Assembly (NCBI GenBank): GCA_000091205.1
Contig: AP006500.2
Reading direction: 5' to 3' (one strand)
DNA from: Cyanidioschyzon merolae
Lineage: Eukaryota
Length of the DNA stretch: 64,000 bases
The position numbers and the translations under genes are program-made. The notes under the pieces were generated by a model. That model worked only from the letters and a program-made list of their open reading frames with translations, did not search any database and had not been told where the DNA came from. Shown piece after piece: positions 1 to 58,440 of the stretch (positions within the stretch are counted from its first letter, which is position 1; each line of letters starts with the position of its first letter).

Positions 1-330
1 GCGGCGTCGAGACAATGCGGTGTCGCGTTTGGGCCTTGAGATGTAGCGAATGGCTGTTCCCGGATGTCGCTGGGCGATAGCGGTGCTCGCTTTTGCTGGC
101 TCCGCAAGGCATCCAGCTGCACTGCCATCCGCGAGAGATGTTCGCGGAGGACCTCGTTTTCCTGATGGGCGGCATCTAACTCCGCAAGAATGCGGGTAGC
201 ACCTGCTGGACTGCCCAAGGCCTCTGAAAGATCCGAAATCTGTGATTCCGATGCAGGCTCGGTTGGGGTATCCCTTGGTTTTGCTGGACGCCTCCTGCGG
301 ATGCCCCGCAGACGGCTGCCAGCGGCGAAG
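1..330 (-). CDS. Partial ORF running off the window start with no Met or stop inside the window. It encodes a low-complexity, coiled-coil-like segment '...RRRRPAKPRDTPTEPASESQISDLSEALGSPAGATRILAELDAAHQENEVLREHLSRMAVQLDALRSQQKRAPLSPSDIREQP...'. Product unknown.
   Basis: Manual reverse-complement translation of 1..330 gives an uninterrupted reading frame with protein-like composition. It is absent from the supplied Met-start ORF track. Confidence 0.2.
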
Positions 331-3300
331 CGGTGATGTGGCGGCATGCGCGGCCTCCGACGCTGCTCCACTGGGGCAGAACCCGGAAGGCCCCCGCTGA
401 TGGACTCCACTGCACGATGCAAGAGACCCCAAATGGGGCTCGAGGCATCTCTACCGATGAACGCTTGTGATGATATACTGAACGGCGATCTCGATAACTG
501 TTCTGAGCGGTCGTGTGGTACGAATCCAACACGACGCAGTCGTGACGCTATAATGCCATCATCTTTCGCGCGTCGGCGCCACACGGGCGCAGCAGCCGGA
601 CTTGTGAGTGGTATAAAAGAGGGTCCCAGCTGCTTAACAGGCGAGTGCGATGGGGAAGCGCTTCTCCTGGGCGTTTCATCAATCTGCATTCCGATTGTTG
701 ATGTACCAGGGATGCTACCGTCCGCTGGGATTGGTTCGTGCTCCAGATTCGGGTGCATCTGGGGGTTTCTGCTGAGCTTCTCGTGGGAGGCGTCAGTGCA
801 TCGCGTGTGCGGATGCAATAGAGGTCGTGTAGGCGCGGTAGACGTTTCGTCTGTGAACGCGCTGGGGTCCTCAAGCAGCCCACCGGCAAGCAAATTCACT
901 GTGGCATCATCGTTCGAGCGGTATTTCGACCGTTGGCCGGATGGACTCGGGCGTGAACTGAGCACCCCATGCTGGGTGAGGTCCTGTTCGAAGGCCCGTC
1001 TTTGAGACGTCGTTTGTCGATTGGGTTGCGGTGACGCTGCAGCGTTACAGGGTGAAGTTCGGTGCTTTGCTCGCTCCGTCTGCGACAAGCCTTGGCTGCC
1101 ACCAGTTAGGATTCGAGGCGCCTGACAAGGCACTGTGGTGGCCGCGAAACCTTCTCGGGAGGCGCTTTCAGCTTGGTCACATCCGCGTTCATCGCCACAG
1201 CGCTTTGGCACCCCGCCCAAGTGTTGCGACGCCAAGACTGTGGCCCGCCGATCTCGGTACGTTGGTGCTTGCAGCGGTGTCATGGCCGAAAGAGCCGGCG
1301 ACGCCTGGCTCCGCACACTGCCATTGTTCTGAGATATTCCTACGTCTGCTGTGGGCAGACGCTCTGCATCCCGTCGCGGTGTTCTGTCTGAAACGAACAC
1401 ATCGTCTTCTTTGGGAATTCGCTCTGCTTGTTCAACCGCCCGTTGCCAAGATGCTGCCCTTGGAGCGCTAAGGCGCTCAGCAAGCCCTGCACCAGCACTG
1501 CGTTGCGTAGCTTGGTTTCCAAGATGCTGTATAGATGGGGCTTGCTTCTTTGGGCTCAAGGCGGTGCTTCCTTTGGGAACCCCGCCATCCTTCAACTTTT
1601 TGAAGCTCCAGAAATAGTTGAAATCACTTAGTCCGGAACGATGGGGGGCTCGTGCATTTCGAGAGGGCGTACCCGGAGAGATGTTCGTGCAGGGCGACTG
1701 CACCTGAATCGCAGCAGGTGCCGCTGTTCCTGGGGAGCTCGTGTGCCGCAGCATCTGCACAGACTCCTCATCGGTCGTAGAATATGTTCTGATTCGTCTC
1801 TCGGTGACTAGCTTTTGCAGGACACGGTGTCGGGGGGACTGTCTTCCACTGAAAGCGTCTTCAGAGGAAGCAGCTTCGGGTAAAGGCGCGATAGGTATGG
1901 CGTCGTCACGGAGTTCGCCCTGTAGCACGGCACGAGGAACAAATTTTCTTTTCTTACGGGTCATTTGATCACCTCGAGGTGTTGCAGAACCGATAACGCC
2001 ACTATGGGTTTTGGATAGGGATGGCGTCAGCGGCTTGGCGTCAAAGCTCTCTGTGTGACGTCCATAGCGCTCCGCGTCGCTTTCCTGGGTGGGCAGCAGC
2101 CCCGTCTGCATTGCTGGTTCGCGAGCCTTTGCATACAGTTCGTGCTCGGCGTCAACTGCACTATCAGTTGAACCGTTAAACTGGGTGTCAACACGCCCTT
2201 TTTGAATCGCACTGTTTCTGCGCATGTATTCGCCAGGAGCCAGTTGGGGTTCGGTGTTAGATCGCACGCTCCGGAGTCGCGCAGGTTGTGAGCAGTTCCA
2301 CGCTTCGTTCTGAACAGACTGCGTAGCTTCTCGAGGACGTACGCCCGGGTCCGCTTCTTTCAAGTTAAAAGGATTCGCATCTTCGCTACTGTTCTCCCAC
2401 GGGGCGACACCCGCCTCCCGCCGTGGCAGACCCGGCGACCAGAGGCTCGCGAGCCAGACAACACCGCACCAACCTAACCATGTTCCCAACATAGAGAACG
2501 TGCCTCGAACCAGATTCTCCTTGAGTTGTCCTTCGCAGCAGGTCACTTGCGCTGCTTATCCCGACACGAAGTGCAGTATCGCGTAGCAACGGCTGGGAAG
2601 CACTCGCTATCGTGCTGGGGTTTCGCGCGTGGCGGGAACGCAGCATCGCAGCATTGCGGGAAATCTGACAGCTTAGTTTCGATTTCTAGAGAGCCATGTT
2701 AGAAAAAATGGGTCAGGTTTGCGCAGCGAACAGGAGCGTCCGCCTTACAGCTCGAGCGTCTCCTGAAGATCCTCAATGCCAGCCTTTTGCAGGCTTTTTC
2801 TGTCAACAGCTTCCTTTTTGTCTCTCTTATCTGGAGTCTGAAATACGCCGGTCTCTGTTTTCCCTTCTGCGGCGTTGCCAGCCTTTAAAGGACACGGATG
2901 GCAGCGGTACACCACCGATTTCGCTGCTTCCGGTCGTTGTCGACGAATTTCAAGTATAAGCGGTAGTTATGGTCTACATTTCGCATGTCATATTCATCTT
3001 CATTGTGTACAACCTTGTTGTGGCCTTGCCAGCCGTGACGCATGACAGTGTTCAGATCTTGCCATATGTCTACAATTAGTCCTCCTTCGCCTCCCTGAGG
3101 CGCCATGTGCCGCATGAAGGAAGGCTTTATCGCCCCGCACATGTCCTTGACGGGCACAGGAGGCTCGCGTTGGTGTCATGTTTCCTTGCAATCGCCGGTG
3201 AGGTACCCTGGGAGCACAAGTTTCTTCTGAGCAATCCACTCGGTAAGTACGCTGTCCGTTGCAAAAACAAGCGCATGTTGCTCCATTTAGTAGAGGATTT

Positions 3301-5174
3301 GTAGAACGCGATGCCGTAGATGATGAGTCATGATCTGTACGGGATACCAAGTCTGGAGATCAAGTGAAAAAATATGGATCCATCTACGCTGCCTTCGTGC
3401 GAATTCGTAACGTGCACTCCATTCGAAGCGAATACCGTGACGCCGCATGTCCGAGCCCATTGCTCTGTTCCATCGAAACAGAAGAGACGGGAATATCTGG
3501 GAGCATATCCCGTGAAAGATATCACGTTGGCATTGAACAAAGTCTCGTCGGTGGTCGGAAAGAGAGGAGGAATTTTCTTTCGAGCGTGATCGATCATTTG
3601 ATCTCAGAAGCTAAGTAGACTTTCGGCATGAGACTGTCAACAAGTAGCGAACGGTAGACGCCGGATTGGCGTCCTCGTCAATCCAGCGGTGCATATTGCT
3701 GCTCCTAAGATTTTCGTTGAAACAGCAAGATCGAGAACTTTAGGCTTACGTGATCCAAACAAGATACACGTCAACAAAGAAGAATCATGGAAGCTACTAG
3801 ATATGACTTGAATGACGATATCGGTCATTTTACGAACCGTTGTTCGAGGGCATTGCGAATCATTTCGACGCCCGCGACGTGACTAATCCTAGCGGCAAAG
3901 AGTCGAACGACACGATCTGGAAAGAGGACAGAAAATCCTCAAACTACGTAGCAACCCGTCGTCCGTTATTGCTATACTTCGAATGTAGAGGCTGTGCATC
4001 TAAAAAAATTTGGAACAAATCGCAGGGCAGTTCCAGTTTGAACGCTAAAGTGTTCCATTCTAATCTGACAAGGACGTAGAGCGCAGTCGGAGCATGGGAC
4101 ACTCGCGAATCGATCCAGTGCCGGCACCCGGTGCTGTGACAAAACGCGGCCATCAATGGTTGCGGCGCCCTTCATATATCCACGGCAGGTGGAAAATGCA
4201 TCGCAGAGCTAGGCGCAGATCGGCGCATATTTCGGAATGTACTCGACGACCTGCGAGTAAATCGCCTCGCGAAAGCTCCGGCAATGACAAGTCGCGATGG
4301 ATTCGCCAATAGACAGACGTCTCTGAATGAAGCCGCATGCGCGCTCAGCGCGGCAGGGTCCTGCGAATCAAGCGCAGATGCTTGCGGAGAGCTCGCTGCA
4401 CACCTATAATCGCGGATTGCCGGCTCCAGTACGTGCTCTTTCTGTATTCGAGGGCGGACGCCATCACCGCACCTCACCAGCGCCTGGAACCGACCCGATA
4501 CACTGGCACCGGTCCCGTGTCCGGCATCGGCTACCTCGAGCCGCTATCCGCGACGCAGTCTTTCGAAACTGATCAGGCTGCGAACGAGATGAGCGCGTCT
4601 TTGTAGCCTGAACCCGCTGCGTACGTGTTCCATGGATTCCGCACTGCTGGAGGATTGCATCCGAGCTGTTGGCAAAGTCGATAGCGAGTCGGGACTGTCC
4701 AAAAGAAACAAAAGAGGTCAGAGCTGGTATTGAAAAGCTGGCAGAGCAGACAGCCGGCCCCGTGCGACCGACGCCTTGGCCTCTACCTACTAGAAGATTG
4801 TCCTGATATTGCCTCCCGGGGCGACGTTGTGCACGGATACGTCTATTCTGCACGATCCCGAGAGCGCTTTGGTGCACTGCCCGATTCCCGCTCGTACATG
4901 CAACAGGGCAGGTCCAAAGCTTGACATTTTTGGATCAGAACAACAGACGCATCGGTGGCGCTCTGTGCATGCGCCACGTGACACCGAAACCTGGACGTCC
5001 AGATGCACTGCTGCACGAAATCGACGTGCGATCGAACGACCTGGGTATCGTTCGAACAATCGAAGCTGGTAACGTAGTTGCACTCAACGGTATGCTGGAC
5101 GTGGTGCAGTAGAGAACATGTTGACGAGAGTTTTATGTAACGAGCGGAATTGCCTTTAAAAGAAAAGGTTTCGT

Positions 5175-7643: not shown

Positions 7644-8117
7644 TCTGACGTCGGCAGAATCCGGAACGTCTCCAGAACGCGCCACTGGTACCCGTGGCGA
7701 CAACAGCGGCAGAGCAGGTGCGCTCTTGTGCAGACTGTTCAGTACCGCGGTCGCGATGCTACCGCTGGCGCTAGCCACAGGGTACCCATGTTCATTGAAT
7801 GGAATGAGGGCTTGCGGGCAGTCCTGGCGCCAACTGCCTGCAATCCGCAATGTCGGCTTCGTGCGCACGTATGTCACTTCATGTGCACGGCACGCATGCG
7901 GCCTATCGGCAGACGCGCGTTCTCTGTAGCGGCTCGCTGCCTCCGAAATCTAAAGCCCATGTTTTAGTTTACCTCAAATGATACATAGCTGTCGAGAATG
8001 CTGCGTACCGGAAACATCCAAGTACCTGGAGCGAAAGTCACGGAGCACGTCTTGCATCCCAGTGGCAACCTGGAAGCGTCAACTCCCAGGGGAAAAACCA
8101 CCACACGGGGCACACAC

Positions 8118-8353
8118 CATCACCGCCTTTCGAAAGTCGAACGGCAGCAGTGTACAGTAGTGGCGGCAACCGCGCCCTAGACGAAACGTCTCCAACCGAC
8201 GTGCAGACGCCTCCCGGTTTTTCTCGACCGAGCACCCACTACTGCTTCCAACTTCTTTTCATATAGTTCCACTTTGAAAGGTTATCCAATAAAGTTCTCT
8301 CTTGTCGACTCTGGAGGTCTCTTCTCCAGCACCGCACATTTCCTTATATTGAT
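8118..8353 (-). ncRNA. Candidate omegaRNA scaffold / right-end module of the Fanzor element. It overlaps the last ~23 codons of the nuclease ORF and ~165 bp downstream.
   Basis: A ~235-bp block conserved at roughly 85-90% by eye with 22601..22837; its core is conserved again at 28636..28674. It contains short perfect hairpins (ttcga-aag-tcgaa at 8129..8141; gacg-aaa-cgtc near 8181..8191). Its position relative to the ORF matches the TnpB/Fanzor omegaRNA architecture. Homology stops sharply at 8118 in both copies, as expected for an element end followed by the guide. Confidence 0.45.
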
Positions 8354-10540
8354 AGCGGCATTAAAGTCTCGGTTCACGAATTCCATCCGTTTCTTGCTAT
8401 CACTTGTTGTACTAACCAATGCAAGTAGCCCTCGCACTTTTGCCCTCCTCTCCATTTGCTCCTCCGTCAGCGGTCCGTACTTTGCTATTTCCTCAGGATT
8501 CCGCTGGCACTTTTCCATCCCGACCCTTCGAAGTGTACACCCCAGCTCGTGGTGTGTATAGGACGTTCGGAACTCATCCACAGGTATCGTAAAGAGACGC
8601 CTTGCGCACTCTTTGTACGCTCTCGTCGTTGGAGCTGGCGTAGTTCCTTTTAGGGTCTTCCATCGCCCTGCACCGTACGCTACTACGAGCCTCTGATTTT
8701 CATTCTCCTTGAGCGCGCTCAACTGATTGAAAAAGTTGGCGAACGCCCGCTGCCTCCCACCGTATAGATGCATACACAGACGAGCCCACCGGGGCTTGGT
8801 ATACTCCTCCCACAGCGCATCCCAATGGGCAACACGAACTCCCATGGATTTCCGGAAAGCTTCAAAGTCGGCTCCTCGGCTCGTCACCTCGCTCAACGCT
8901 TCCAGGTGATCCTTCATTCCTGAATTCCAAGTCTCGATTTCCTTCCTCGCATTCATGATTGCCGATTCTCGATAGTATCTCGCTCTCGAGAATCTCAACA
9001 GACGCATATCTTTCTGACGTAAGTTGCCGTCAGTACCATCTTCCGCACGCTTCGGTGCTGCGACGGCTATAATATTCGTATTTCCAGGGTCCGCGCCAAC
9101 GATAAAGTCGTTATCCTGCACTTTCTGCTTCTCAGAGCCCGCCTTGTTGTTTTCTTCATGCTTCGTCGCGTCTACGACAAGGTCGTTATCCTGCACTTTC
9201 TGTGTGGCAGGATCCGCATCCTTCTCATCTCCATGCTTCGTCACGTCAACGATAAAGTCGTTATCCTCCACCTCCTGCGTCGCAGGACCCGCCCCTTTGT
9301 TTTCTTCATGCTTCGCCGCGTCAACGATAAGGTCGTTGTCCTGCACCTCCTGCATCACAGGATCCGCCTCCTTGTTTTCTTCATGCTTCGTCACGAGCGC
9401 AGCCAAGGGCGGAACTGGACGATCTTTCTTCAACCGCCAATAGCGTATACACAAGGCTACTCCATCGGTTTCGATCAACCCAATGAATACCTTCTTCTTG
9501 CTCACTTTGAGACGTTTGAAATCGAAGATGCTCATCCAGTACGTCTCCCGGTTTTCGCCGGTGAAGTCCTCCCTGCTAAAATCGAACTCGGGACTGATCT
9601 CCCTCATGACGCCATGAAGGATTCTGGAGTCGATAGTCACAAAATGTGACTTGATGTTGCCCAACGGAACCACGTTGAAGCGCTTCCCCATTAGGAAAGC
9701 CTTCCGTCTCTCCCACTCTTCATTTGTCTCTTCACTCAGCATCACCTCTGCCTTGCGTTCGATGTCACGATCCAGAAACACGAAATACCGCAGGACGAGG
9801 CGATAGTATCTTTCCTTCTCTTTTTTCAACGCTAATATCTTGTCTGTTGGATTCACCAGCCCCAGTCCCGCACGATCCTCTTGTATAACCGCACGGATCG
9901 TAGAGGCTTCATTGGTGCTCACCTTTGACGTCGTCTTGTCGACAAATTCGACCTCATCTTCACGCTTGCGATCTTTCATGATGCCATTGATAATCGCCCA
10001 TTTCCCATTGCGAGAGATGCCCGAGTAGAGTGCAATCACAGCGCGTCTCATGAAACGTTCGAGGTTCACTGTCAAATGGTTCTTCAGATTCGTGATGTAC
10101 TTCATGGGCCTATATGTGTAAATATCCCGGTCACCCTTGTATCGAGTACCATTGAGGCTGTAAAAGGGATGTTTTTCGTGGAAGACATCCACCCGCTCAT
10201 TTTCCTCCCGCGCTTCCTCTGTACCAAGCGTCAGCTGACGAATAAAAATCTTGTCGAAAAACACGTGTGGAATCTCGACCGTTTCGATGGGCGTCACGTC
10301 GCGATACATCTCCCTCTCCAAATGCATCAGTCCTGACGACGCCTTGAAAATACTCTTGGAGTACGAGTCCACACGTTTTTTGATAGCGTCTCGCAACTTT
10401 TCCTTGTAGGGATCCTTGATATGTCCAAGAAGAAAGGTTTTCACAACCATCTCGTCGTACAGTTGTCTTTCTTGCCGCCTTCGACGTAGGGTATCCCCCT
10501 TTCGGTTCTTCTTCTCTTCCTTTTCTTCTGGACTAGACAC
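8282..10540 (-). CDS. Fanzor (eukaryotic TnpB-like, RuvC-fold RNA-guided endonuclease; OMEGA effector), Fanzor1-like. It has a long N-terminal extension and an internal acidic tandem-repeat insertion.
   Basis: 752-aa ORF. RuvC-I: '[18 protein letters not shown]'. RuvC-II: '[18 protein letters not shown]'. RuvC-III: '[18 protein letters not shown]', which matches the DxNAAxNI signature of TnpB/Fanzor. Spacing is I-to-II ~170 aa and II-to-III ~70 aa. The region between II and III has only 2 Cys (non-canonical zinc finger). It is embedded among eukaryotic housekeeping genes. Confidence 0.75.
9098..9396. repeat. Coding tandem repeat of 4 x ~75 bp inside the Fanzor ORF.
   Basis: Units begin 'acgataaagtcgttatcctgcac...'. 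They encode ~25-aa acidic repeats '[26 protein letters not shown] / [24 protein letters not shown] / [26 protein letters not shown] / [19 protein letters not shown]'. The last unit runs into the RuvC-I motif. Confidence 0.8.
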
Positions 10541-10760
10541 TGTTTTTTGTTTTTTCTGGCAGCCAGCGACACTGGGCCTCCAGGATCGTCGATTTGCTTT
10601 TTCATAACTTTCCTTTTTTTAGTTTTTTTGGAAAAGAACGCTCCCTCAACGCCTCTGATATAAACAGCGAAAGAAAACTTGAAAAAACTAAACTGAGGGT
10701 TGAAATATAACTGAACTGAAAAGTATACTCTGCTGTGACTTTAACGCAAATACAACGTGC
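10541..10760 (-). promoter_or_regulatory. AT-rich 5' flank, the putative promoter/5'UTR of the Fanzor ORF.
   Basis: The local AT content is much higher than the surrounding GC-rich sequence (poly-T/A runs and TATA-like 'ttatattt' on the sense strand). It lies immediately upstream of the ATG at 10540. Confidence 0.3.
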
Positions 10761-10940
10761 ACTTGAGAGCAACACGCTCAAGATCGCGATCCCGTTTCCC
10801 TTCAACAACGACATGCGCGTCGTATTTCATGCCTCCCAGATATGGAGGTGCGCGTATCGACCGCGATGCCCCCTGGCACTCGGACGTGAACTCCAAATAC
10901 CCTCAATAGAAGCATTAGCAGCAGGCTGCCGGGCACGCAT

Positions 10941-11708
10941 ATGGGCCAAAGGGCCCGCCATGCGCACCTGGTTCAGTCGGATTTTCATGCAGACCCCAAC
11001 GCACCGCAAGAACTCTTGGACGAAATCGACGCAGATTTGGCTGAAGCGCCTCTTAGGCGAAAACATTCTCCCCAATCGTTCCCCAGAAATATAGAAGGCT
11101 CCCGCCGCCTGAAGCGAACGGTCCAAACAACAGTACGGGAATGTAGACATGCAGTCAGTCGCGCGAGTAACGCCGGCTTGACTCTATACCGGAACTACAG
11201 CCTAGCCTGTTCATGCACGTACTGGTGGGAGGCGCTGGAGTTCACGGGACTTGCTCGAGGTACACAGTGGCTCGCCAAAATCCGCGTTGGTGGCTTCTGG
11301 CTACCAGCACCGGCTCTAAGCCGTATAGGAACACTGGAATCGCACTGGGAATCACACTGTCCCTGCTATCGAGACGAAATCCCCGAGACCCTGACATATG
11401 TAGGCGTACAGTGCCCGCGCTGGAAGCAGGAGCGCAGCGAGCTCCTTGAAGGACAGCAGCAGCTGGGCATCACCGTGATAGTCGAAGGCCGGACACTCAC
11501 TCTGAGTGTAGCACTGGCAACTGATGGTCCGCTAACCGAGCATCAGCGCTCATCAATGGCGAACAAACGCATATGCTACCTTCTAGGTGGAAGATCCAGC
11601 GGATCGGATGCGCACACGGGCTCAGTGCGCTCTCTGCGCCTACCTTCTGTGGTAGGTTTCAAGCACAAACCCGCATTGCCAACCGACAACAACGCATTCC
11701 ATGCATGA
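10941..11708 (+). CDS. Hypothetical ORF with a zf-RVT-like motif (CPxC...ET...CP...W), as found at the C-terminus of non-LTR retrotransposon ORF2 proteins. It is a possible decayed LINE fragment.
   Basis: Motif 'HWESHCPCYRDEIPETLTYVGVQCPRWKQERSEL'. No RT catalytic motifs were seen. It lies between the Fanzor start and repeat B on the opposite strand. Confidence 0.25.
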   Translation: MGQRARHAHLVQSDFHADPNAPQELLDEIDADLAEAPLRRKHSPQSFPRNIEGSRRLKRTVQTTVRECRHAVSRASNAGLTLYRNYSLACSCTYWWEALEFTGLARGTQWLAKIRVGGFWLPAPALSRIGTLESHWESHCPCYRDEIPETLTYVGVQCPRWKQERSELLEGQQQLGITVIVEGRTLTLSVALATDGPLTEHQRSSMANKRICYLLGGRSSGSDAHTGSVRSLRLPSVVGFKHKPALPTDNNAFHA

Positions 11709-11945
11709 TCACGAAGGAGAGAGGCGGCTCCCAGGATATATCCTAACAGCCAAGTTTCTCCAGCGTGTCGTGCAGCGAAGGCAAGCCTGCATCCGCAGAC
11801 TGTCCAAGCACAAACTGACGACGAGGCCCGATTCTACTTCAGGTGAAGTACGCCTCGAGCCGATGCCCTCTGGGGTATAGAAAAGCAGTTCTAGCTCTAT
11901 GAACTATCTGATCCAGCGGTACAGGTCCAAAGGTGGATACGGAAA

Positions 11946-12139
11946 GGCAGGTACTAGGCACACTCGATAGGACGTATGAAACGACCAGAACATCCGAGAT
12001 GAAGTATATGTACTGTAACTTGGAGGTAGGGTGTTTGATAGATACCTCACCGCGCTCTGAAAAAATATAAAGTAAGAAAAGAAAAATGCGCATAATCGGA
12101 GAACGCTGGCCCAAGTAAACGTCTTGTCAATGAAAAAAA
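11946..12139 (-). repeat. Repeat family B, copy 1. It is the reverse complement of the copy at 22838..23027 and a possible element left-end region.
   Basis: Roughly 85% identical by eye over ~190 bp to the reverse complement of 22838..23027. Homology extends through 'gtcaatgaaaaaaa' (12126..12139). The plus-strand TATA-like 'tataaag' (about 12066..12072) has no counterpart in copy 2. Confidence 0.6.
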
Positions 12140-13612: not shown

Positions 13613-14206
13613 CAGCCGACCCGTAAACTCGTACCTGTCGTTGTCTTGCTGGGTATTGCGTAGAGCAGCGCGTGCCTCTCAGTCGCAACCTCTACACCTC
13701 TATACCTGTGGCCAGATCGGCGACACCAAAAACTCTCTCTGAAGCAGCTTTCAGGTGCTGCTTAAGCCTCCGTCCAGCGAATCGCGGCTGTGGAGCCTTT
13801 CGAGCACCAATTCTCATTGACGGAATCTCTGAATGAGATATATCGCTACAGTGCCAACGTTTGCGCACTCGCGTAGCGCTGTGTGCAGCTTGGCTTGCAG
13901 GTGAGGGTGCAGGTTTGTGTGCGTTTCCTTCGCTACGTCAAGGTAGTTGGTGTGTTGTATTTTGGAGAATACAAAAGCCATTGTGCTCTGCAGCTGGTGA
14001 GGATCGAAGCACTTCACCAGCTGGCACTCGTACAACGACTTTTTCCCACAGCATTTGTCGTGTTCCAAGAAAAGCTCTCGTGTACTTATAGACTACAGCA
14101 GCTGCGACTTTGGCGTGCTACAAGTTCGCAGTGCTGTGAGCACTCTTCGTGCTAACCCCGACTGGTGCGATTTCCGTAGAAAGCAGCGCTCGCACTCGCG
14201 TCTTGC

Positions 14207-14824: not shown

Positions 14825-16504
14825 AACATCGTCGGCGTGAGAGAAGCAAAAGGTTGAGCGGCTCAAAAGCATCGAATCTGGTGGACACTTGCGCATTCAC
14901 TTCCCACAGTATGCGTTTGCATGCCGCAGGCGCCGCTGCAACAGTCAGAACTCGCATTTTTGCAGCCGCGTAATCGCTTCCATTTGGCGAATCCAACTTG
15001 ATTGTACCGGAAACCGGCACAGACCTGATTAGACCAGTGAACCTTGAAGATATCGTTCGTCGGAAGCCAGCATTTGCATCGCGATTCGTGTGGGAATGTG
15101 TTTGCTCATTCGCTGGCTCGATCATTCCAGTTAGAACAACGGCAACGACAACAACAGAAGTAGCCCCTGGCTTCTCATGGTATTGGTGATGGCAACGCAG
15201 ACACCGGATGCCGAGCTGCTTTCGCGCACAGTGTTCGTCGAAACGTGTTCCCTCGGCAACGGGACGACAAACGTCGTATCCCCAGGATGGTTGGAGCGTG
15301 ATGTCAGACTTACACGTTTCGTGCACAACTATGGTTTCCACAAAACAGCCCCCAGAACGAAGCAGAAGCCCTCGTCGATTCCGACTGCTCGCGCCTCTCC
15401 AATCGTCTGGTCGATGTGAACCCCACGTGTCACATCAAGATCCATGATATCGCAGGAGGCTCGTCTGCACTGTACGAGACGGCCTCCTCTGTGAGCTACC
15501 GCTGATCTCTGGGAACGAGTAGAACGCGTTCGAACAACATCGCGATAACGAGTAGCGGAGCTCGTTCCAAGCTGCTCGTATATAACGAAGAAATGCAAAG
15601 CAGTTTACGCGGACGAGAGAGTCCCGCGGAGTATCGGTCTGGATGCACTGTGTGTAAACGAGGACACATATCCAAGAGTCGTGCAGCGATGCTCATTTCC
15701 AACCGTTCAACGTAGGTCATGAGAGAGGCTTCGTGAGGCGCGTGAATCTCGCTTTGCAAGGCGTCATCGCTGTCGAAGCACTTCCACATCAGGAAGATGG
15801 AGCCAAATACCTAAACGGAAACCAGATGAAGCTGTTCGACTCTCACAGGCTCTGCTTCATCGAGAGTCGAACGTGATGATCGCCAGGATCGTTACGAAAA
15901 TGGAATAAAAGCGTTAGTGCCCGTCTTATCGTTCCAAGCGTCCTGTCGAGCAGCAAGGAAACGCGCTGCGCGCAACATTCAAAGCAAACATGAGCGTCCT
16001 AATGACTCAGACCGACGATTCCTGGGAAGCGTACATGAGGCTGCGCTGCTGTCGCCAACATATTCGGTCTCACGGAGGCAAGAGGCATGCATTCGCTAAC
16101 ATGCTCAATGATGCGGTTCACGACTTGTTCGGCAACCTATAACAGGGCGAAGTTCTCGCGACCGATGGGATGGCAAGCTGTGCGTCGCGCCAGTGGGGCA
16201 TGGCGTCCAAGCAACTGGGACCCATAGAATGTGCTTCGAATCTTGCACAGTATCAATGGAAAAACAGAAGCGCTTCATGAATCAGTCAGCAAAGGAGTAC
16301 CGCATTCGGATCTCCTCGCATCAGAATCGACTCCTTTCACCCCGCACACCAGTGAAACCCTGCGGTGCAGTGCTCGGGACTTAGCCGAGCCAGAAACCCC
16401 AACTCTTTGCTGTAAGACCTCACTGGCAATGTGCATATGCTGCATCTTGCGGGTCTCTGCATGATGCCGTCCCCGATACATGGAACAGATTGGTTAGCTT
16501 CTCT

Positions 16505-20515: not shown

Positions 20516-21697
20516 TCACGTAATGGGGCAGGTTTGTCTACGAGATTGCCGTCGCTGGGGAACCGAGGATGCTTCCTGAACATGGGAACTCTTACTTGTG
20601 TGGTTGTGAAAGCGTCGATTCGCCATACAGGGAGGTTCATCCCGGGACACGTTGTCAGGGAAGTCCTTCAGTGGCTCTGGGGGGATTTTCGCGGTCCAAA
20701 CGCTATAGATATAGCCGTAAAAGTTGCCCAAGTGATATGTTCGGCGACTAGGTGCACATGACACACAACGGAAAGGGCCAAACCCTAGCAGCTGGCTCTC
20801 CGGCTTCAGGAGTCTAATATCCCAAAAGATGGCTCGCCCACGTACTGAGGTGGTCACAGCCCGTCGACCATCGGTGGCTAGGCCCCAGATAGAGTCCCGA
20901 TGCAAGCGAAACTCATACGCGGGTTTGTTGCCCACTCGGGCATCCCAGAGCCGAAGGACATGGTCTTCGCCTCCCGATAGGAACTCATTTCCGCTCTGGT
21001 TTGCGAGCACCTTGACGCAGCGCACTTCACCCTCAACGTCCTTGGAGAAGACGCTCACCGGTTCAGTAGAACCGTGACCCAGATCCCAGAGCTCCACGGA
21101 ACCCCGCTGTGTCGCTGCGATACCAAAGTGCAAACCCGAGCTAGTATATTGCATGAACTCTACATCGTAAACTTCGTTATGCAGGAGATCGCCATCTGGA
21201 GGGACCCTTTTCACGGTGTGTGTGCAACAACACGCCGCACATGACCAAACACGAAGTGTGCCGTCGCTGGATGCACTCAGGAGGCGCTCCTCTGCACGAT
21301 CCGCTGACAGCGCATAGACCGCACCTCGATGACCACGAAGTGTTTCCATGCGGACGCACGTCGTTGGGTCAAACAGCTGAATGGTGCGATCAATGCTACA
21401 AGAGGCAGCTAAACCTGGTCGCACTTCAACAACATCGTTTACGGCAGCTTTGTGACCCGAGAAAGACTGCTTTACTTCACCGGAAGTGAGATGTAGTACC
21501 TCAACATCCGCAAGAGAGCTGGCAAGAAGCGCCAAGCTTTCGTCCGCCTCGAGAATAGCAATGCTGTACGTCGTGGTTTCCCTGTCAAGGCGCACCACCG
21601 ATGAGGGGAACTCCACGGAATTGTCCCCCAGAACTGCCGGAATCGGAGTCTCTAACCGCGAGAGCGGTACGTGCTTCCCACTGATGCAGCATTGCAT
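20516..21697 (-). CDS. WD40-repeat protein. The C-terminal ~100 aa are of doubtful coding quality.
   Basis: Multiple WD-like repeats: 'GHKAAVNDVV...CSIDRTIQLFD', 'GHRGAVYALS...SASSDGTLRVWS', 'LSGGEDHVLRLWD', 'TTSVRGRAIFWDIR'. Confidence 0.6.
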   Translation of the reverse strand: MQCCISGKHVPLSRLETPIPAVLGDNSVEFPSSVVRLDRETTTYSIAILEADESLALLASSLADVEVLHLTSGEVKQSFSGHKAAVNDVVEVRPGLAASCSIDRTIQLFDPTTCVRMETLRGHRGAVYALSADRAEERLLSASSDGTLRVWSCAACCCTHTVKRVPPDGDLLHNEVYDVEFMQYTSSGLHFGIAATQRGSVELWDLGHGSTEPVSVFSKDVEGEVRCVKVLANQSGNEFLSGGEDHVLRLWDARVGNKPAYEFRLHRDSIWGLATDGRRAVTTSVRGRAIFWDIRLLKPESQLLGFGPFRCVSCAPSRRTYHLGNFYGYIYSVWTAKIPPEPLKDFPDNVSRDEPPCMANRRFHNHTSKSSHVQEASSVPQRRQSRRQTCPIT

Positions 21698-22600: not shown

Positions 22601-23027
22601 CATCACCACCGCCGTTCGAAAGTCGAACGACAGCAGTGTGCAGTCGTGGCGACCGGCGCCCTAGACGAAACGTCTCCAACTGACGTGCAGACGCCTCCCC
22701 GTCTTTTTGGACCGGCCACCTTCTACTGCTTCCAACTTCTTCTCATATAGTTCGACTTTGAGAGGTTGTCCAACAAAGTTCTCTCTTGTCAGCTCTGGAG
22801 GTCTTCTCTCCAGCACCGCACATCTCCTGATACTGATTTTTTTCCATTGACAAAATGTTTACTTAGGCCAGCGTCCTCCGATTCTGCGCATTTTTCTTTT
22901 CTTACTTTTTTTTCAGTGCGCGGTAAGGTATCCATCAAACGCCCTACCTCCAAGTCATATTCCCTATACTTCGTCTCGGATATTCTGGACGTTTCATACG
23001 TCCTACCGTGTGTGCCTAGTGCCTGCC
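22601..23027. mobile_element. Solo composite remnant: module copy 2 (22601..22837, omegaRNA-scaffold/right-end homolog in the same orientation as locus 1) joined directly to repeat B copy 2 (22838..23027). It lacks a Fanzor ORF.
   Basis: The module homology ends at the position equivalent to 8353, inside the Fanzor ORF 3' end. The B homology begins at the very next base. B is inverted relative to its orientation at locus 1. Short overlapping ORFs here are just read-through of the repeat. Confidence 0.55.
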
Positions 23028-24275
23028 GAGAGCGATAGCAATGGCGCCTGTAGCCCCGGTGCGGTCGCTGCACGGAGACAGAACGGCGTTGCCGTACCAC
23101 ACAGAGGGCGTCTGCCCGAGGAAATTGCGGTGAGGACGAGATTCCAACTCGCGCGCTCAAAGAGCATATCCTTGGCAGGCACACCCGTTAACCATGGCGG
23201 TACTTCTGGTGCAGAGGTATCTCCGGCACCTCACCGGTAATCCCCTAGGAAATCCGATAGTTTGGCGATTCTCCTTCCTAAATTTTCGGTAATTTGTATT
23301 GTGTGCCAAGTGCACGAGCCTATCTCAAACCAAATGGATTCGGCTCTGGCTCGAATCCATGACGGTCGAGGGTTCCATCAGTTAGCAGTTCGGATGTTCT
23401 TCTTATTTGTTAGCATTCGTGATGCTAAAGTGGAAAGGCGTCGTGTTCTACGATGATGTGGAAAATGCTTTGCTTGTTCCGATGCCTATTTGCGCGGATC
23501 GTATCCAGCGGAATTTGGCAGGGATGCATAGAGTCTATATCGAGTGAACAAGTCTGCCGCTCGCCCGGTGAACGCCCGCCATCGAGTGATTGCCTTTGTG
23601 CGGAAACCATGGGCCGGCATTTTTCAGCCCATGGGATACGGGCACTCCGCAGAGTTTCAAGTCAGCTGCTGGCTACGCGCGCACGCAGTTCACCCTGGAC
23701 ACAGTCGAGACGACGACGCCCCATGCGGTGACGGACGGGGCGCTCGACAAGGTTTAAAAACGGTGCAGACCGCATGAGGTTTCATACGGACAAACTTTGG
23801 AGAATACAGCACGAAAAAGTCCCCAGAGCAGTGTCGTTCAAACAAGCCGAGCCTTTCCTGGGTGTACTCGTTCAGAAACGGTGCGTCCCAGCGCGTGCTC
23901 ACTCCCTACCCGCTTCCTCGCACGATCAGCCAGCTGTTGCTCCAGAGGCGGCACTGCGCAGATTTTTCCATCATTTTCAGAACTTTGATTGCCACTGTTT
24001 CACAAATGCGCAGAAACCAGCACTCGTAAAGCGCCACTTCGTTGCCATCGCTTCTGCACTTGAGCCCCTACTGCGCTGCAGAGTGGATGCCGGACGGCGC
24101 GGTGAGACGCGGAGCGCGCGTAAAGTACATAGTTCGATGATCAACTACGTTCTTTCATCAAGGCCAACAGTCAACTTCGCTGGTTTCCGGTCTAACTGTT
24201 TCTGAGTGCTGTTCAGAGCGATCATCCCTTGGGTAGCAGGAACTCGAGCAGTTCCCGAAATACAAGCCCTGGACG

Positions 24276-26492
24276 ATGCCAGGTGTCGGGTTTGTTCAAA
24301 TGGCCCCTGGGCGGGCGGCCGCTGCACCAACCCCGCAGCGACACAGTGTGTGCCCGCGTGCACCCTCGAAACGGGAACACGCGAAACTGTGTAGCTATGC
24401 TCTGTGGAACTCTCGTAAGTCAGAGGCAGCGAAAGGTGGGCGACCACGCTCTCGTGCGGCGCAGACGCTGGAGGCGCTCCAACTAGCCCGCCGCCAGTGG
24501 GAACATCAGACCTGGTCCGTTTCCTCACAATCGAATCGCGGACGACAGCGCCGACGAGAATCTTTGGTACTCGTTTTGTTGGCCCCTGGTGTGAACTTCC
24601 GGTTGGATGACAACACTGCCCTGATTGACGGCATCACTCGGGCTAGTCGGTACGGTTCACAGCTGGGCGTCGTGGTGCCGACGGCGGCCGTCGAGCGCTA
24701 CCCGGCGATGGTTCAGGACCTTTACGATCAAGTGCAAAAACGTGGCAGCCAGCTAGGAGTGATCGATAAAGAGCGACTCGCAAAACTTCGCGCAGGGCTA
24801 GGCGAAGGCTTTCCGATCGTCATTCAGGCATGCGTTGGCGCCGAACCCTTTCTTCAGGGACTGGCGCCCTGCCCGGTTTTTTGGAGCACGCCCACAAAAG
24901 CGGGTCAAGAGCCAGTGGATGCGCCCCGATGGATGCCTCCCGCACTTGTATCTCTTGAACCTTTAAAACTGCCGCTGACCCTAGCTAATGGAACCGAGCC
25001 GACGGAACCTGACTTTCGAGAACGCTCCGTATTGCGAGCATTGCGGGAAGCGGCACCCTCGCAGACCCTGCCTGCACTCGAGCAGTGTTTCAAATTGCCG
25101 TTAGAGCTCGCAGTACTTTCGAGGGTGCGGCTACGATTCGAGTGGGAGAAGATGCATCGCCCGCGAGAGCCTGGGCATCTGCAGGCCTGGCTCTGGGGTG
25201 GCGCGATCTGTGCGCGTCTACTCGCCAGGAGTCCCCCAGCGTGCCACGCGATCACCGTATACGATATCCATGGCAATCATATGCGCGAGTTGCGCTGGGA
25301 TAGCCAACATAACCGCTTCAGTTTCCGTGGACACAATGGAGATCATGACTACGAAGCGGCTTTTTGGAGTTTTGCGCGCCGCAAGTGGCTCTGGTTGAAG
25401 CAGTCTTTCATACCCGAGGATGTCACTGCTGACTACTACGAATTCGCCAAATGGCGAGTTTTTCAACGACTCATGTCGAGTACGGTTGGTGTCTTTGGGA
25501 CGCAGGCCCTGCTGCTGGCCCTGGGTATCAAAAGCGGCAACAAAATCAGTCAGGCTGCAACGATCAGTTGGGTCCTCAAAGACGGTCTCAGCCGAGTGGG
25601 TAAAATGCTCTGGGCGAGCCAGCTCGGGCGGGACATGGATGCAGATCCCAAACGCTTTCGATTCGGTAGTGCGTTGCTCTACTCACTGGGAAACGGTCTA
25701 GAAATTGCGACAAGAATCGTTCCGCAGTCTTTTCTCCTCGTGGCCACCTTGGCGAATACCGCAAAACTGTGTTCGATGTTAACGGCTTCTGCTACGCGGA
25801 ACGCCATGTATCGTTCGTTTGCGGACCGCAATGAGAACATCGCTGACATCACGGCCAAGGGAGAGGCACAAATAACAATCGCGGATCTCGGCGGGATGGC
25901 GCTTGGGATTCAGTTATCCAAGATCATTGGAACCTCGCGCCCCAAAGTTGTAGCAACGTACCTGATTCTGAGCACCATTGATCTGTATGCAATCTGGAAG
26001 GAACTTCGAGTGATCGAGTTCCGTACGCTGAACTTGCAACGGTCGTCACTGGTCATCGAGCATTACCTCAAAACGGGATGCGTCCCGACTCCGAAGCAGG
26101 TGAGCGCTGCGGAGCGGGTGGTGCTGCCCGAACCCATTCCCCGCCACGCTTTCGTTGCATTCTCGAAGCTAGTTCGCGACGAGCAGGAGGCCGAGCAGAT
26201 GATCAAACGCTATGGTTCAGCCAGGTTCCTGATGCGCTACGGCGAGGTCCACTGGCCGTGGACGTGCCTCCATTCGAGTCGTGGTGGCATCGTTCTTCAT
26301 CGAGATGCAGACCAACAAGATATCTTCCGGGCGATTCTTTGTTGGAATCTGCGCCGCTTAGGCATCGTCCAAGAAGAAGATGAGGTACTTGCTAGAGCGG
26401 ATGTGGTGATGGAGCCACTACTGAAAGCTGCTCGCGAAGCAGGCTGGCGAACCTTTGTGTACCCAAAGTTCAAGCATCGCGCGTTGTGGTAG
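24276..26492 (+). CDS. RUS (ROOT UV-B SENSITIVE) / DUF647 family protein. The N-terminal ~290 aa of the ORF are probably upstream read-through, with the real start internal (~25150..25250).
   Basis: DUF647-like core: 'FIPEDVTADYYEFAKWRVFQRLMSSTVGVFGTQALLLALGIK...ISWVLKDGLSRVGKMLWASQLGRDMDADPKRFRFGSALLYSLGNGLEIATRIVPQSFLLVATLANTAKLCSMLTASATRNAMYRSFADRNENIADITAKGEAQ...LSTIDLYAIWKELRVIEFRTLNLQRSSLVIEHYLKTGCVPTP'. Confidence 0.6.
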   Translation: MPGVGFVQMAPGRAAAAPTPQRHSVCPRAPSKREHAKLCSYALWNSRKSEAAKGGRPRSRAAQTLEALQLARRQWEHQTWSVSSQSNRGRQRRRESLVLVLLAPGVNFRLDDNTALIDGITRASRYGSQLGVVVPTAAVERYPAMVQDLYDQVQKRGSQLGVIDKERLAKLRAGLGEGFPIVIQACVGAEPFLQGLAPCPVFWSTPTKAGQEPVDAPRWMPPALVSLEPLKLPLTLANGTEPTEPDFRERSVLRALREAAPSQTLPALEQCFKLPLELAVLSRVRLRFEWEKMHRPREPGHLQAWLWGGAICARLLARSPPACHAITVYDIHGNHMRELRWDSQHNRFSFRGHNGDHDYEAAFWSFARRKWLWLKQSFIPEDVTADYYEFAKWRVFQRLMSSTVGVFGTQALLLALGIKSGNKISQAATISWVLKDGLSRVGKMLWASQLGRDMDADPKRFRFGSALLYSLGNGLEIATRIVPQSFLLVATLANTAKLCSMLTASATRNAMYRSFADRNENIADITAKGEAQITIADLGGMALGIQLSKIIGTSRPKVVATYLILSTIDLYAIWKELRVIEFRTLNLQRSSLVIEHYLKTGCVPTPKQVSAAERVVLPEPIPRHAFVAFSKLVRDEQEAEQMIKRYGSARFLMRYGEVHWPWTCLHSSRGGIVLHRDADQQDIFRAILCWNLRRLGIVQEEDEVLARADVVMEPLLKAAREAGWRTFVYPKFKHRALW

Positions 26493-27989: not shown

Positions 27990-28700
27990 ATTAAAGACTT
28001 TCCCATGATTTCCGGCGATGTCCTTCAACTGGACAGCTTCCCAATTCACCATTCCACTTGCGCTCGAGCTTCTCCCGATTTTGTTGGAGTAGAGCCACTT
28101 CTCATTCCGCCGTACACTCCGTGGGTGAACCGCATCTAAGAGAGAGTTTTCTATTGTGGAGCGCAATGGTCGCTGCACTCGGAGAATCCCTGTGCCATTC
28201 AGCAGTCAGCGACACCGAGACACTTGCCGTCTTTTTCCTGCAAGTCCTTCTTGCTCCGGGAAGGTTCTTACGTGGGGGCATAAGCATGTGCATTGATTTT
28301 CAAAATTAAAGACCCTAAGGCATGCGCCGAGTGTACAGTTCAGAACATCGTTATGGAGAGCAGGCAGCGGAGTGCTGAGGACATAGAAAAGCACGGAGAG
28401 CTGCCGGAGCACCAAACGGCACAGAGGGCGCGAGTTCTTGGACTCCTCGCACTGACCAGTTCAACCAATCGCAAGAAACACATTGAGTTCATGAACTGAG
28501 ACTTTACCGCCGCCATCAATATCAGGAGATGTGCGGCACTGAAGAAGAGACCCGCGGAGCTGATGCGAGCCAGCCTTGTCGGACAACCTCTCAGTGTCGA
28601 GGTGTATAGGAAAAAGCTGAGGCTGATAACAGACAGCCGGTCGAAAAAAAGCTGGGAGGCGTCTGCAAGTCGGTGTATGTATGTGCTCTATGATCGCGAA
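27990..28700 (+). pseudogene. Degraded Fanzor/TnpB-like paralog. It has frameshifts and an in-frame TGA before the RuvC-III motif, has lost its stop, and is followed by a partial copy of the omegaRNA-like module (core 28636..28674).
   Basis: '...TAQRARVLGLLALTSSTNRKKHIEFMN*DFTAAINIRRCAALKKRP...' aligns with the locus 1 C-terminus '[46 protein letters not shown]'. Upstream fragments 'SHFSFRRTL', 'IVERNGRCTRRIPVP', 'DTCRLFPAS' match 'AFANFFNQL', '[19 protein letters not shown]', '[11 protein letters not shown]' in shifted frames. Downstream, 'ccggtcgaaaaaaagctgggaggcgtctgcaagtcgg' matches the reverse complement of 8196..8232. Confidence 0.5.
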
Positions 28701-57594: not shown

Positions 57595-57920
57595 AATGCA
57601 GACGAAACGGTAGTTGCTCTATCAGCAACGCTGAACAGTGCGCGAAAAGCAACTGTGTTTGCGCGCAGGTCCGCTCGCGAAGCCAGACGCCGCAGGCTAT
57701 ACCTTTCCGCAGAACGCGACTTTCGATAACACCTTCCTAGTGCTGTTTGGTACAGCAAAACTGTCCAAGGAATCCAAGAAGCTTCACAGTCCAGTGCCTG
57801 CAGTTGACGCAAACATAACCCCGCACCGTATCGGTCGTGAACACAATGCCTTACGTCCGCAGCTCAAGCGAGCACGCTTTGGGTTCTAGGTATAGGAAGC
57901 GCTTCGCCCTGCATTGTATT

Positions 57921-58440
57921 ACGCTATGAAGTGTTGGATTGTAGTACACTAGGATTTGTTATATAGTTTTACGCTATGAAGTGTTGGATTGTAGTACACT
58001 AGGATTTGTTACATTATTTTACGCTATGAAGTGTTGGATTGTAGTACACTAGGATTTGTTACATTATTTTACGCTATGAAGTGTTGGATTGTAGTACATT
58101 AGGATTGGTTACATTATTTTTAAGCTATGAAGTGTTGGATTGTAGTACATTAGGATTTGTTACATTATTTTTAAGCTATGAAGTGTTGGATTGTAGTACA
58201 CTAGGATTTGTTACATTATTTTACGCTATGAAGTGTTGGATTGTAGTACATTAGGATTTGTTACATAGTTTTACATAATAAAGTGTTGAATTTTAGTACA
58301 CTAGGATTGGTTATATCGTTTTACATTATAAAGTTTTGGATTGTAGTACATTGCACTGCATTGCTTTCATTTGTCACATCGCTTTACACGATGATGTTAT
58401 GGACTGTAGTTCATTGCACTGCATTGCTTTGATGTGCGCG
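57921..58440. repeat. AT-rich minisatellite: ~9 tandem copies of a 50-52-bp unit ('acgctatgaagtgttggattgtagtacactaggatttgttacattatttt'), followed by 2 copies of a related ~50-bp unit ('cattgcactgcattgcttt...').
   Basis: Period read directly from 57971/58021/58071/58122/58174. It lies in the divergent intergenic region between the giant gene (start 57594, minus) and the cyclophilin gene (plus). Confidence 0.85.

Follow-up and report, generated by a model that had tools for sequence, protein, structure and literature searches.

The Fanzor1 elements of the CMe-1A family of the red alga Cyanidioschyzon merolae are ~3 kb long, lack terminal inverted repeats (TIRs) and occur in copies ~80% identical to their consensus (Bao and Jurka 2013, PMC3627910), and a WSV486-like interspersed repeat of 3.2 kb is present in 253 copies that make up ~5% of the same genome (Nozaki et al. 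2007, PMC1955436). The CMe-1A elements of the former report are the 253-copy repeat of the latter. Here we analysed a 64-kb stretch of C. merolae DNA (the window), in which the 3′ end of an element of this type is joined to a retroposon resembling a short interspersed nuclear element (SINE) at positions 22601–23121 (locus 2). Very probably, locus 2 is a junction of two unrelated mobile-element families in a cyanidialean red alga. Judged by the published descriptions, the Fanzor1 family of the window resembles CMe-1A in its elements of 2.75–3 kb with one TnpB/Fanzor-like open reading frame (ORF), no TIRs and no clear target-site duplications (TSDs), and in its many copies in a cyanidialean red alga, some of them with intact ORFs.

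Three other kinds of system are relevant to this locus. Stringent-type pairs of long interspersed nuclear elements (LINEs) and SINEs, such as UnaL2/UnaSINE1, have a common 3′ tail. Reverse transcriptases (RTs) can switch templates, as illustrated by U6/L1 chimeric retrocopies, by the template jumping of R2 in vitro and by L1 twin priming. In TnpB and Fanzor loci, the omega-RNA scaffold reportedly overlaps the 3′ end of the ORF and runs to the right end of the transposon, as is said to follow from the work of Karvelis and of Altae-Tran in 2021 and of Saito in 2023; the SpuFz structure 8gkh is a further reference for such loci. To our knowledge, the transposition mechanism of CMe-1A-type Fanzor1 elements is unclassified.

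An earlier note on this DNA had described locus 2 as an ORF-less composite of two repeats, a "module" and a "repeat B", joined base to base, with B inverted relative to another locus of the window (locus 1). Our comparisons confirm this description. The module copy at 22601–22837 matches 8115/8118–8353 on the same strand with 87.0% identity over 239 alignment columns (E=1e-79), and repeat B at 22838–23027 matches 12139–11946 as the reverse complement with 87.1% identity over 194 columns (E=9e-64); both similarities are far beyond chance for a 64-kb window. The two repeats abut with an ambiguity of at most 1 nt, the T-run at 22837–22843 being an A7 tail seen from the other strand. The junction does lie within the 3′ end of the ORF, as had been proposed, at codon ~730 of 752: it falls after codon ~729 of the 752-amino-acid Fanzor ORF, and amino acids 730–752 were recognisable at 22837–22769 with 78% identity (tblastn). 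Locus 2 has no Fanzor ORF and contains only short incidental ORFs. The composite was also found in the independent metagenome contigs L100 and L128, with 99% identity, and is therefore not an assembly artefact.

Read on the minus strand, locus 2 consists of a flank, the SINE-like unit (23121–22838) with its A7, Fanzor positions 2516–2754 (22837–22601) and another flank. The Fanzor part is the last 237 bp of the element, 87% identical to 8115–8353; it comprises the last ~23 codons, the non-coding 3′ region and the right end, the boundary of which agrees with that of ~19 other Fanzor copies. No Fanzor sequence upstream of position 2516 continues at locus 2. The SINE-like unit (22838–23121, minus strand) is a full-length retroposon of ~284 nt, which has the canonical 5′ start CCTCGGGCAGACGCCC at 23121 and ends ...TTTTGTCAATGG-A7 (A-run at 22837–22843). 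Its A7 touches Fanzor position 2516, both parts having the same orientation. The locus-2 copy is ~13% diverged, sits in a 2.6-kb intergenic region, between a WD40 gene (20516–21697) and a UVB_sens gene (24276–26492), and is probably inert, with no coding capacity. The earlier view that locus 2 is not a simple internal-deletion derivative was borne out, as the locus holds only positions 2516–2754 and no left-end sequence; likewise, we rejected a Fanzor derivative of the internal-deletion type resembling a miniature inverted-repeat transposable element (MITE), because the two termini are not both retained, the left end being absent.

The complete Fanzor1 element, of the CMe-1A type, lies at locus 1 (8114–10868, minus strand). 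Its 752-amino-acid ORF, present in the list of ORFs of the window, occupies 8282–10540 (minus strand), and the module at 8118–8353 (minus strand) comprises the 3′ end of this ORF together with the non-coding sequence that extends from there to the right end. We found 37 homologues of the ORF, every one of them in a metagenome assembly (JGI, ENA or Logan), and fetched 17 loci around them for comparison of the element limits (these and other loci are denoted by L numbers). Homology to the window extends from ~8114 (right end) to ~10841–10868 (left end), and no further, in at least six gene neighbourhoods; module and B are therefore not the two flanks of a 4-kb element at 8118–12139, as had been supposed. 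The right end is common to ~19 unique Fanzor copies with unrelated flanks, and the left end is also common to the copies, but with several different upstream partners. No TIRs were found at the 8114–10868 element. The copies are ~75–87% alike, and the family is a multi-copy mobile unit with defined ends in differing contexts.

Single-sequence searches of the 752-amino-acid ORF against Pfam and PDB were both empty. A profile of the ORF homologues had one match only (E=0.005), which lay at the DPG RuvC-I motif of the Guillardia theta Fanzor1 (9cer). The seven best Foldseek PDB matches of an AlphaFold model of the ORF (low confidence; predicted local distance difference test score, 51) were all Fanzor proteins (SpuFz, PpFz and GtFz; E=1.5e-8 to 5e-6); Cas12 and TnpB ranked next. 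By its predicted structure, the ORF product is thus a Fanzor with a TnpB/Cas12-type RuvC fold. The ORF holds four in-frame 75-nt tandem repeats (25-amino-acid units) at 9094–9393, and the number of repeats varies among homologues, which accounts for much of their spread in length from 582 to 752 amino acids. The stop codon TAA of locus 1 (8282–8284) is CAA at locus 2 (22766–22768) and in most family members, so that a longer part of the module is normally coding in the family; the end of the ORF at locus 1 may be premature.

By sequence comparison, repeat B is the conserved 3′ tail of an RT-encoding family of retrotransposons without long terminal repeats (non-LTR type). A 5′-truncated, 1.27-kb copy is present at locus 1 (10873–12139, plus strand; LINE reference 3026–4288) and ends ...AAACGTCTTGTCAATG-A7 at 12139 (A7 at 12133–12139), the aligned position at which dozens of other copies end too. 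It contains an ORF2 C-terminal remnant (10941–11708, plus strand) and, at its 3′ end, the equivalent of the SINE-like unit (11853–12139, plus strand), within which the inverted copy of B (11946–12139, plus strand) is the most conserved 194 nt of the retrotransposon tail. On the plus strand, locus 1 reads flank, Fanzor antisense (8114–10868), LINE sense (10873–12139) and flank, with a 2-oxoglutarate (2OG)-oxygenase gene ending at 12182; the truncated 5′ end of the LINE adjoins the Fanzor left end head-to-head. The segment 10873–11275 matches positions 1–399 of L004 at 89%; L004 runs on into frameshifted ORFs, and its positions 814–1536 (minus strand) match RVT_1 (E=2.3e-21). All LINE copies read were frameshifted, and their start positions range from 1 to 4095.

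B looks flipped because loci 1 and 2 hold separate retroposon copies on opposite strands, and one of the explanations offered in the earlier note, an independent SINE/MITE-like repeat that co-localises with the Fanzor family, proved essentially right. The breakpoints drawn there need revision: 12139/12140 is a true end, the A7 of a retrotransposon, whereas 8353/8354 is a breakpoint at locus 2 only, with no discontinuity at locus 1. Nor is the inner edge of B (23027 or 11946) a boundary, as the repeat runs on to 23121 at locus 2 and back to ~10873 at locus 1. For annotation, this means that the Fanzor element ends at 10868, not 12139, and that B is to be masked as a separate retroposon family.

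A degenerate tail pattern built from four tails matched only those four locally, and it matched at least 120 metagenome stretches. Among the matches listed, 31 unique loci have A7–8 at one aligned position of the LINE/SINE tail, followed by unrelated 3′ flanks. Most of these tails end ...TTTTGTCAATG(G)A7–8, and the following DNA begins with T in 23 of the 31 unique flanks and with TC in 14. Ordinary copies have TSDs of 10–20 bp, for instance TGCAAAGCAGCCG in L068/L119 and TCGAAAGAGTAT in L108/L136. The segment 22838–23027 corresponds to LINE reference 4095–4288 (87%), and many tails match the locus-1 reference over 4095–4288 only, because subfamilies diverge upstream. B is the 3′ two-thirds of the locus-2 unit, the part that can be aligned with the differing subfamily at locus 1. 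The remainder, 23028–23122, is repeated upstream of the tail in ~60 other loci with 77–93% identity.

At least nine unique copies of ~285–300 nt begin at C(C)CTCGAGCCGACGCCC, with unrelated DNA upstream; at other loci, the SINE-like sequence runs on upstream into LINE sequence. The short unit is non-coding, has a discrete 5′ end and has its 3′ tail in common with a partner LINE, as SINEs do. ARAGORN found no tRNA in it, Rfam gave no match at E≤1, and neither a tRNA-, 5S- or 7SL-derived head nor a recognisable RNA polymerase III promoter was found in the unit, which, rather than a true SINE, may be a product of the tail alone whose 5′ end is discrete. We found no description of this ~290-nt unit for cyanidialean algae. 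One LINE family (L037 12720–14445, L105 123–1530 and L116 12043–14158) has an internal deletion, and its reference position 1833 is joined exactly to the start of the SINE-like unit; this start is hence a recurrent breakpoint even without Fanzor. Positions 13639–14798 of L128, in which LINE 3729–4288 is joined to 74–672, were not used as an alternative allele of locus 1. Compared with 11580–12139 of the window, the flanks are 99.6% identical and mismatches build up gradually inside the LINE, a pattern most likely due to an assembly switch between LINE copies or to gene conversion.

We then counted unique tail ends among the matches listed, which come from mixed-strain metagenome assemblies. 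No Fanzor adjoined the tail in 25–26 of the 31 cases, and the tail was directly followed by Fanzor in 5–6, always in the same orientation and at four element positions only: 2 (L026; L033/L051; L038/L047/L130), 55 (the L035 group), 2516 (window/L100/L128, and L116) and 2644 (L030/L043). Against the 2.5% expected per orientation, this is an excess with a binomial P of ~1e-3. At the module, a tail is absent from the majority of Fanzor copies. The association of module and B elsewhere, on which the earlier note had staked its interpretation, is accordingly a partial one: most copies are unassociated, yet tail-to-Fanzor junctions recur above the expectation for random insertion.

The junction of locus 2, A7/TCAGT(A/C)TCAGGA, is identical at L116, an unrelated locus with another right-end flank and other genes. 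Upstream of the junction, L116 has a LINE of 2.1 kb with an internal deletion, joined to the start of the SINE, where locus 2 has the bare SINE-like unit; no Fanzor continues on the 5′ side of the L116 junction. The modules of the two loci have a derived AGT (AAT in the others) 4–5 nt from the junction and are mutual nearest or near-nearest relatives, with 82% identity. At position 2, both LINE-length and SINE-length upstream parts occur, and the Fanzor copies concerned do not group with one another. None of the junction loci compared showed a tail enclosed on both sides by contiguous Fanzor. LINE 5′ ends lie head-to-head with the Fanzor left end in two structures, that of the window and that of L003/L004/L098. 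Identity matrices of the module and of the left end were star-like and uninformative about common descent of the junction classes. At L116 ~14158–14185, ...CTTGTCAAAAAAAAA-GG stands before the 5′ end of the LINE; it resembles a short tail fragment with two extra G residues and may reflect serial template jumping or chance.

The module is present after every Fanzor ORF examined. The locus-2 copy has a predicted RNA fold of −94.7 kcal/mol (z = −4.2 versus shuffles), and a consensus fold drawn from 17 copies has 32 pairs; the first helix of the predicted fold begins 15 nt downstream of element position 2516. Covariation above that of controls was not found for the fold (112 of 500 shuffles reached it), Rfam gave no match for the module, and its first ~140 nt are coding in most family members. 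From its position, and by analogy with TnpB/Fanzor loci, the module is presumed to be an omega-RNA scaffold; the role stays presumptive because covariation does not exceed that of controls and the ORF reaches further into the module in most copies.

As for the origin of the junction, we would put at a little below an even chance the possibility that its two parts were joined during reverse transcription, by template switching or co-retroposition. The RT of the retrotransposon would copy an RNA ending at the Fanzor right end, reach the 5′ end of that RNA near 2516 and jump to a SINE or LINE RNA at its 3′ A-run; alternatively, a SINE-started read-through transcript of the composite would be retroposed as a unit. 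Either route would yield the SINE-A7 and the Fanzor 3′ end in one piece, and the head-to-head arrangement of locus 1 would fit a twin-priming-like version of the same process. We favour joining by RT because there are no TSDs and no 5′ Fanzor sequence and because the junctions are discrete, recurrent and of one orientation. Segments of the same orientation are indeed joined at discrete recurrent positions, as in template switching. A TSD was also sought around the SINE-like unit of locus 2 alone, a full-length copy, and the best match was no better than random controls.

Several points weigh against joining during reverse transcription. A TSD around the whole composite was not above random controls either, and the ~13% divergence could have eroded one. 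Because an A-tail and any clear likeness to the LINE tail are missing from the Fanzor right end, it is not evident how the RT would prime there. As a composite can be copied as a whole, some of the junctions may stem from one and the same event; with four independent events and the 5% of genome coverage as expectation, P is 0.07. The loci were drawn from mixed-strain metagenome assemblies with at least 120 tail stretches. Furthermore, both the omega-RNA role of the module and an RNA 5′ end at 2516 are what we infer. Finally, an 8-bp TSD, GCGGTGCA, around L011 was retracted, as it lies inside a longer element that extends 235 nt further upstream and is common to L023/L097/L109/L102.

A second explanation, a serious rival that we nonetheless consider less likely than not, is that the SINE-like retroposon was inserted by target-primed reverse transcription into a Fanzor copy at 2516; the 2.5 kb upstream would then have been removed by insertion-associated target deletion or later decay. 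Some nested insertions are to be expected where Fanzor repeats make up ~5% of the genome (PMC1955436), but the absence of a tail flanked by contiguous Fanzor on both sides does not favour them. Although the TCAG that follows A7 fits the flank preference of the retroposon family (T in 23/31, TC in 14/31), the junctions lie in one orientation and at four positions, and three or more of them coincide exactly with the left end. The lack of a TSD is as expected after a deletion at the 5′ junction, and the locus is old (13% divergence) and lies in a 2.6-kb intergenic region; the recurrence of the junction at L116 without upstream Fanzor would, however, call for two deletions or for later copying of the composite.

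We regard as improbable the idea that the composite itself is a non-autonomous mobile unit, with the promoter or 5′ end of the SINE and the Fanzor right end as its 3′ end; such a unit might also act as an orphan omega-RNA gene in trans for Fanzor proteins. Locus 2 and L116 have the junction and the derived AGT in common and their modules are nearest or near-nearest relatives at 82%, but these are two loci only among the at least 120 tail-bearing stretches listed, they are unlike in upstream extent, and the module identities are star-like. Fanzor subfamilies have been co-amplified with differing 5′ partners (L003/L004, L006/L024 and L011/L023/L102), and the locus-2 module retains a stable fold (z = −4.2), whereas flanking duplications are absent. 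The remaining proposal, in which B would serve Fanzor as a terminal or recombination sequence irrespective of orientation and locus 2 would be a rearranged Fanzor element, is barely credible: B-family sequence does adjoin Fanzor in both orientations within the window and LINE sequences abut the Fanzor left end at several other loci, but 25–26 of the 31 unique B tails among the matches listed have no Fanzor at the A-tail, Fanzor copies without B at either end exist (e.g. L011, L014 and L102), B is colinear with an RT-encoding retrotransposon and has a fixed A7–8, unrelated flanks and TSDs in dozens of Fanzor-free loci, and the part that touches Fanzor at locus 1 is the arbitrary internal LINE position 3026, not B.

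A wider reading would be that the Fanzor1 family is itself copied via RNA by the resident LINE RT, with the right end as a fixed 3′ end; we put this forward as a speculative and, at present, unlikely proposal. Under it, the junctions would mark the 5′ ends of Fanzor RNAs, namely the mRNA start at positions 1–2 and 55 and the processed omega-RNA at ~2516 and 2644, and locus 2 would be a retro-copied omega-RNA fused to a SINE. The differing 5′ partners, the excess of 3′-end relics and the right-end extensions, GT-rich or of 16–20 nt, would then be footprints of retroposition. These three features would fit RNA-mediated copying, and other explanations of them are possible.

The features concerned are widespread in the family. 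Short 3′-end relics of Fanzor are common, and subfamilies combine a fixed 3′ end with differing 5′ partners (tail-A7/8, inverted LINE, a 235-nt unit and a second type of retroposon). Beyond the conserved right end, ...GAA(A/C)GGCG(G/T)T, come either GT-rich runs of triplets (GTG/GAT/GTT), which vary, or extensions of 16–20 nt particular to a subfamily, such as GTTCGCAGCCGCTTCG in L102/L135/L051, and unique DNA starts only beyond these runs or extensions; the right ends examined included window 8100–8125, L006 11690–11720, L035 10540–10570 and L102 7100–7130. In one subfamily, a ~235-nt unit precedes the Fanzor left end (L011 780–1014, L102 9885–10119 and L023 1977–2210). It may be related to TE-N2_CMe, a repeat reported to be identical to the 5′ 635 bp of CMe-1A (PMC3627910). 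The second retroposon-like repeat has no A-tail, lies head-to-head with the Fanzor left end (L006 8225–8880 and L024 2295–2860) and has a tail 70–76% like B.

Genuine internal-deletion derivatives of Fanzor were observed at L023 2210–2780 (also in L097 and L109) and at L118 6114–6836. They keep the left end (3–338 or 2–75) and the C-terminal/module region (~2450–2590), with a short residual ORF; the L023 derivative, with element positions 3–338 and 2448–2553, is unlike locus 2. At L002 1464–6390, two Fanzor copies meet head-to-head at 3935/3936 in an inverted duplication, with 5′ truncations at 395 and 136.

Within the window, a third and older Fanzor relic lies at 28331–28674 (plus strand; element positions 2329–2674). 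It comprises the last 85 codons and part of the module (blastn, 70% over 348 nt; tblastn, 53% over 85 amino acids), lacks both element ends and carries no retroposon tail. At 15834–16109 (plus strand), beside an aldehyde dehydrogenase gene, tblastn gave a weak match to Fanzor amino acids 515–605 (30% identity, E=4e-5), which may represent a fourth, much older relic. The window has 55% G+C and long intron-free ORFs, and a flanking ortholog is 71% identical in amino acid sequence to that of Cyanidiococcus yangmingshanensis. The order of the 2OG-oxygenase, aldehyde dehydrogenase, WD40 and UVB_sens genes is conserved in L138 (C. yangmingshanensis JANCYV010000002.1 117209–139422), the 22 kb of which contain no detectable Fanzor or LINE sequence. 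As the sole diverged syntenic locus found, L138 was considered as an empty site and set aside, being too distant to give exact breakpoints. A tandem array at 57869–58402, with 25/50-nt spacing and eight overlapping copies of a 182-nt register, is unrelated to the junction.

How, then, does locus 2 compare with the known systems? As in the UnaL2/UnaSINE1-type pairs, a short non-coding unit has the same sequence as the final ~290 nt of an element that encodes an RT, and the fixed short 3′ A-run, the variable TSDs of 10–20 bp and the 5′-truncated long copies are also those of LINE/SINE pairs; unlike in those pairs, the unit has no tRNA, 5S or 7SL head and no recognisable RNA polymerase III promoter. 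Like the U6/L1 chimeras, locus 2 joins two equally oriented segments, one at precisely its 3′ end and the other at a discrete position, and the head-to-head arrangement at locus 1 resembles an L1 twin-priming inversion. In the U6/L1 chimeras, however, the LINE forms the 3′ part, with the poly(A), whereas here the LINE/SINE sequence is the 5′ part and the 3′ part is Fanzor without an A-tail; a flanking duplication was not detected at locus 2. The module resembles TnpB/Fanzor omega-RNA genes in its location with respect to the ORF and the end of the element, its length of ~240 nt and its strong predicted folding, and differs from them in lacking significant covariation and an Rfam family match.

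Retroposon junctions and a copy consisting of the 3′ end only, as found here, are not described in the CMe-1A reports (PMC3627910, PMC1955436). Locus 2 as such, a probably inert site, joins mobile elements of two known kinds, and only the recurrence of the junctions is unusual. Such recurrent junctions offer a handle on how Fanzor1 families without TIRs or duplications, such as CMe-1A, move and on the start of their omega-RNA; should the junctions correspond to RNA 5′ ends, the boundaries of omega-RNAs could be mapped from genomic relics without RNA data.

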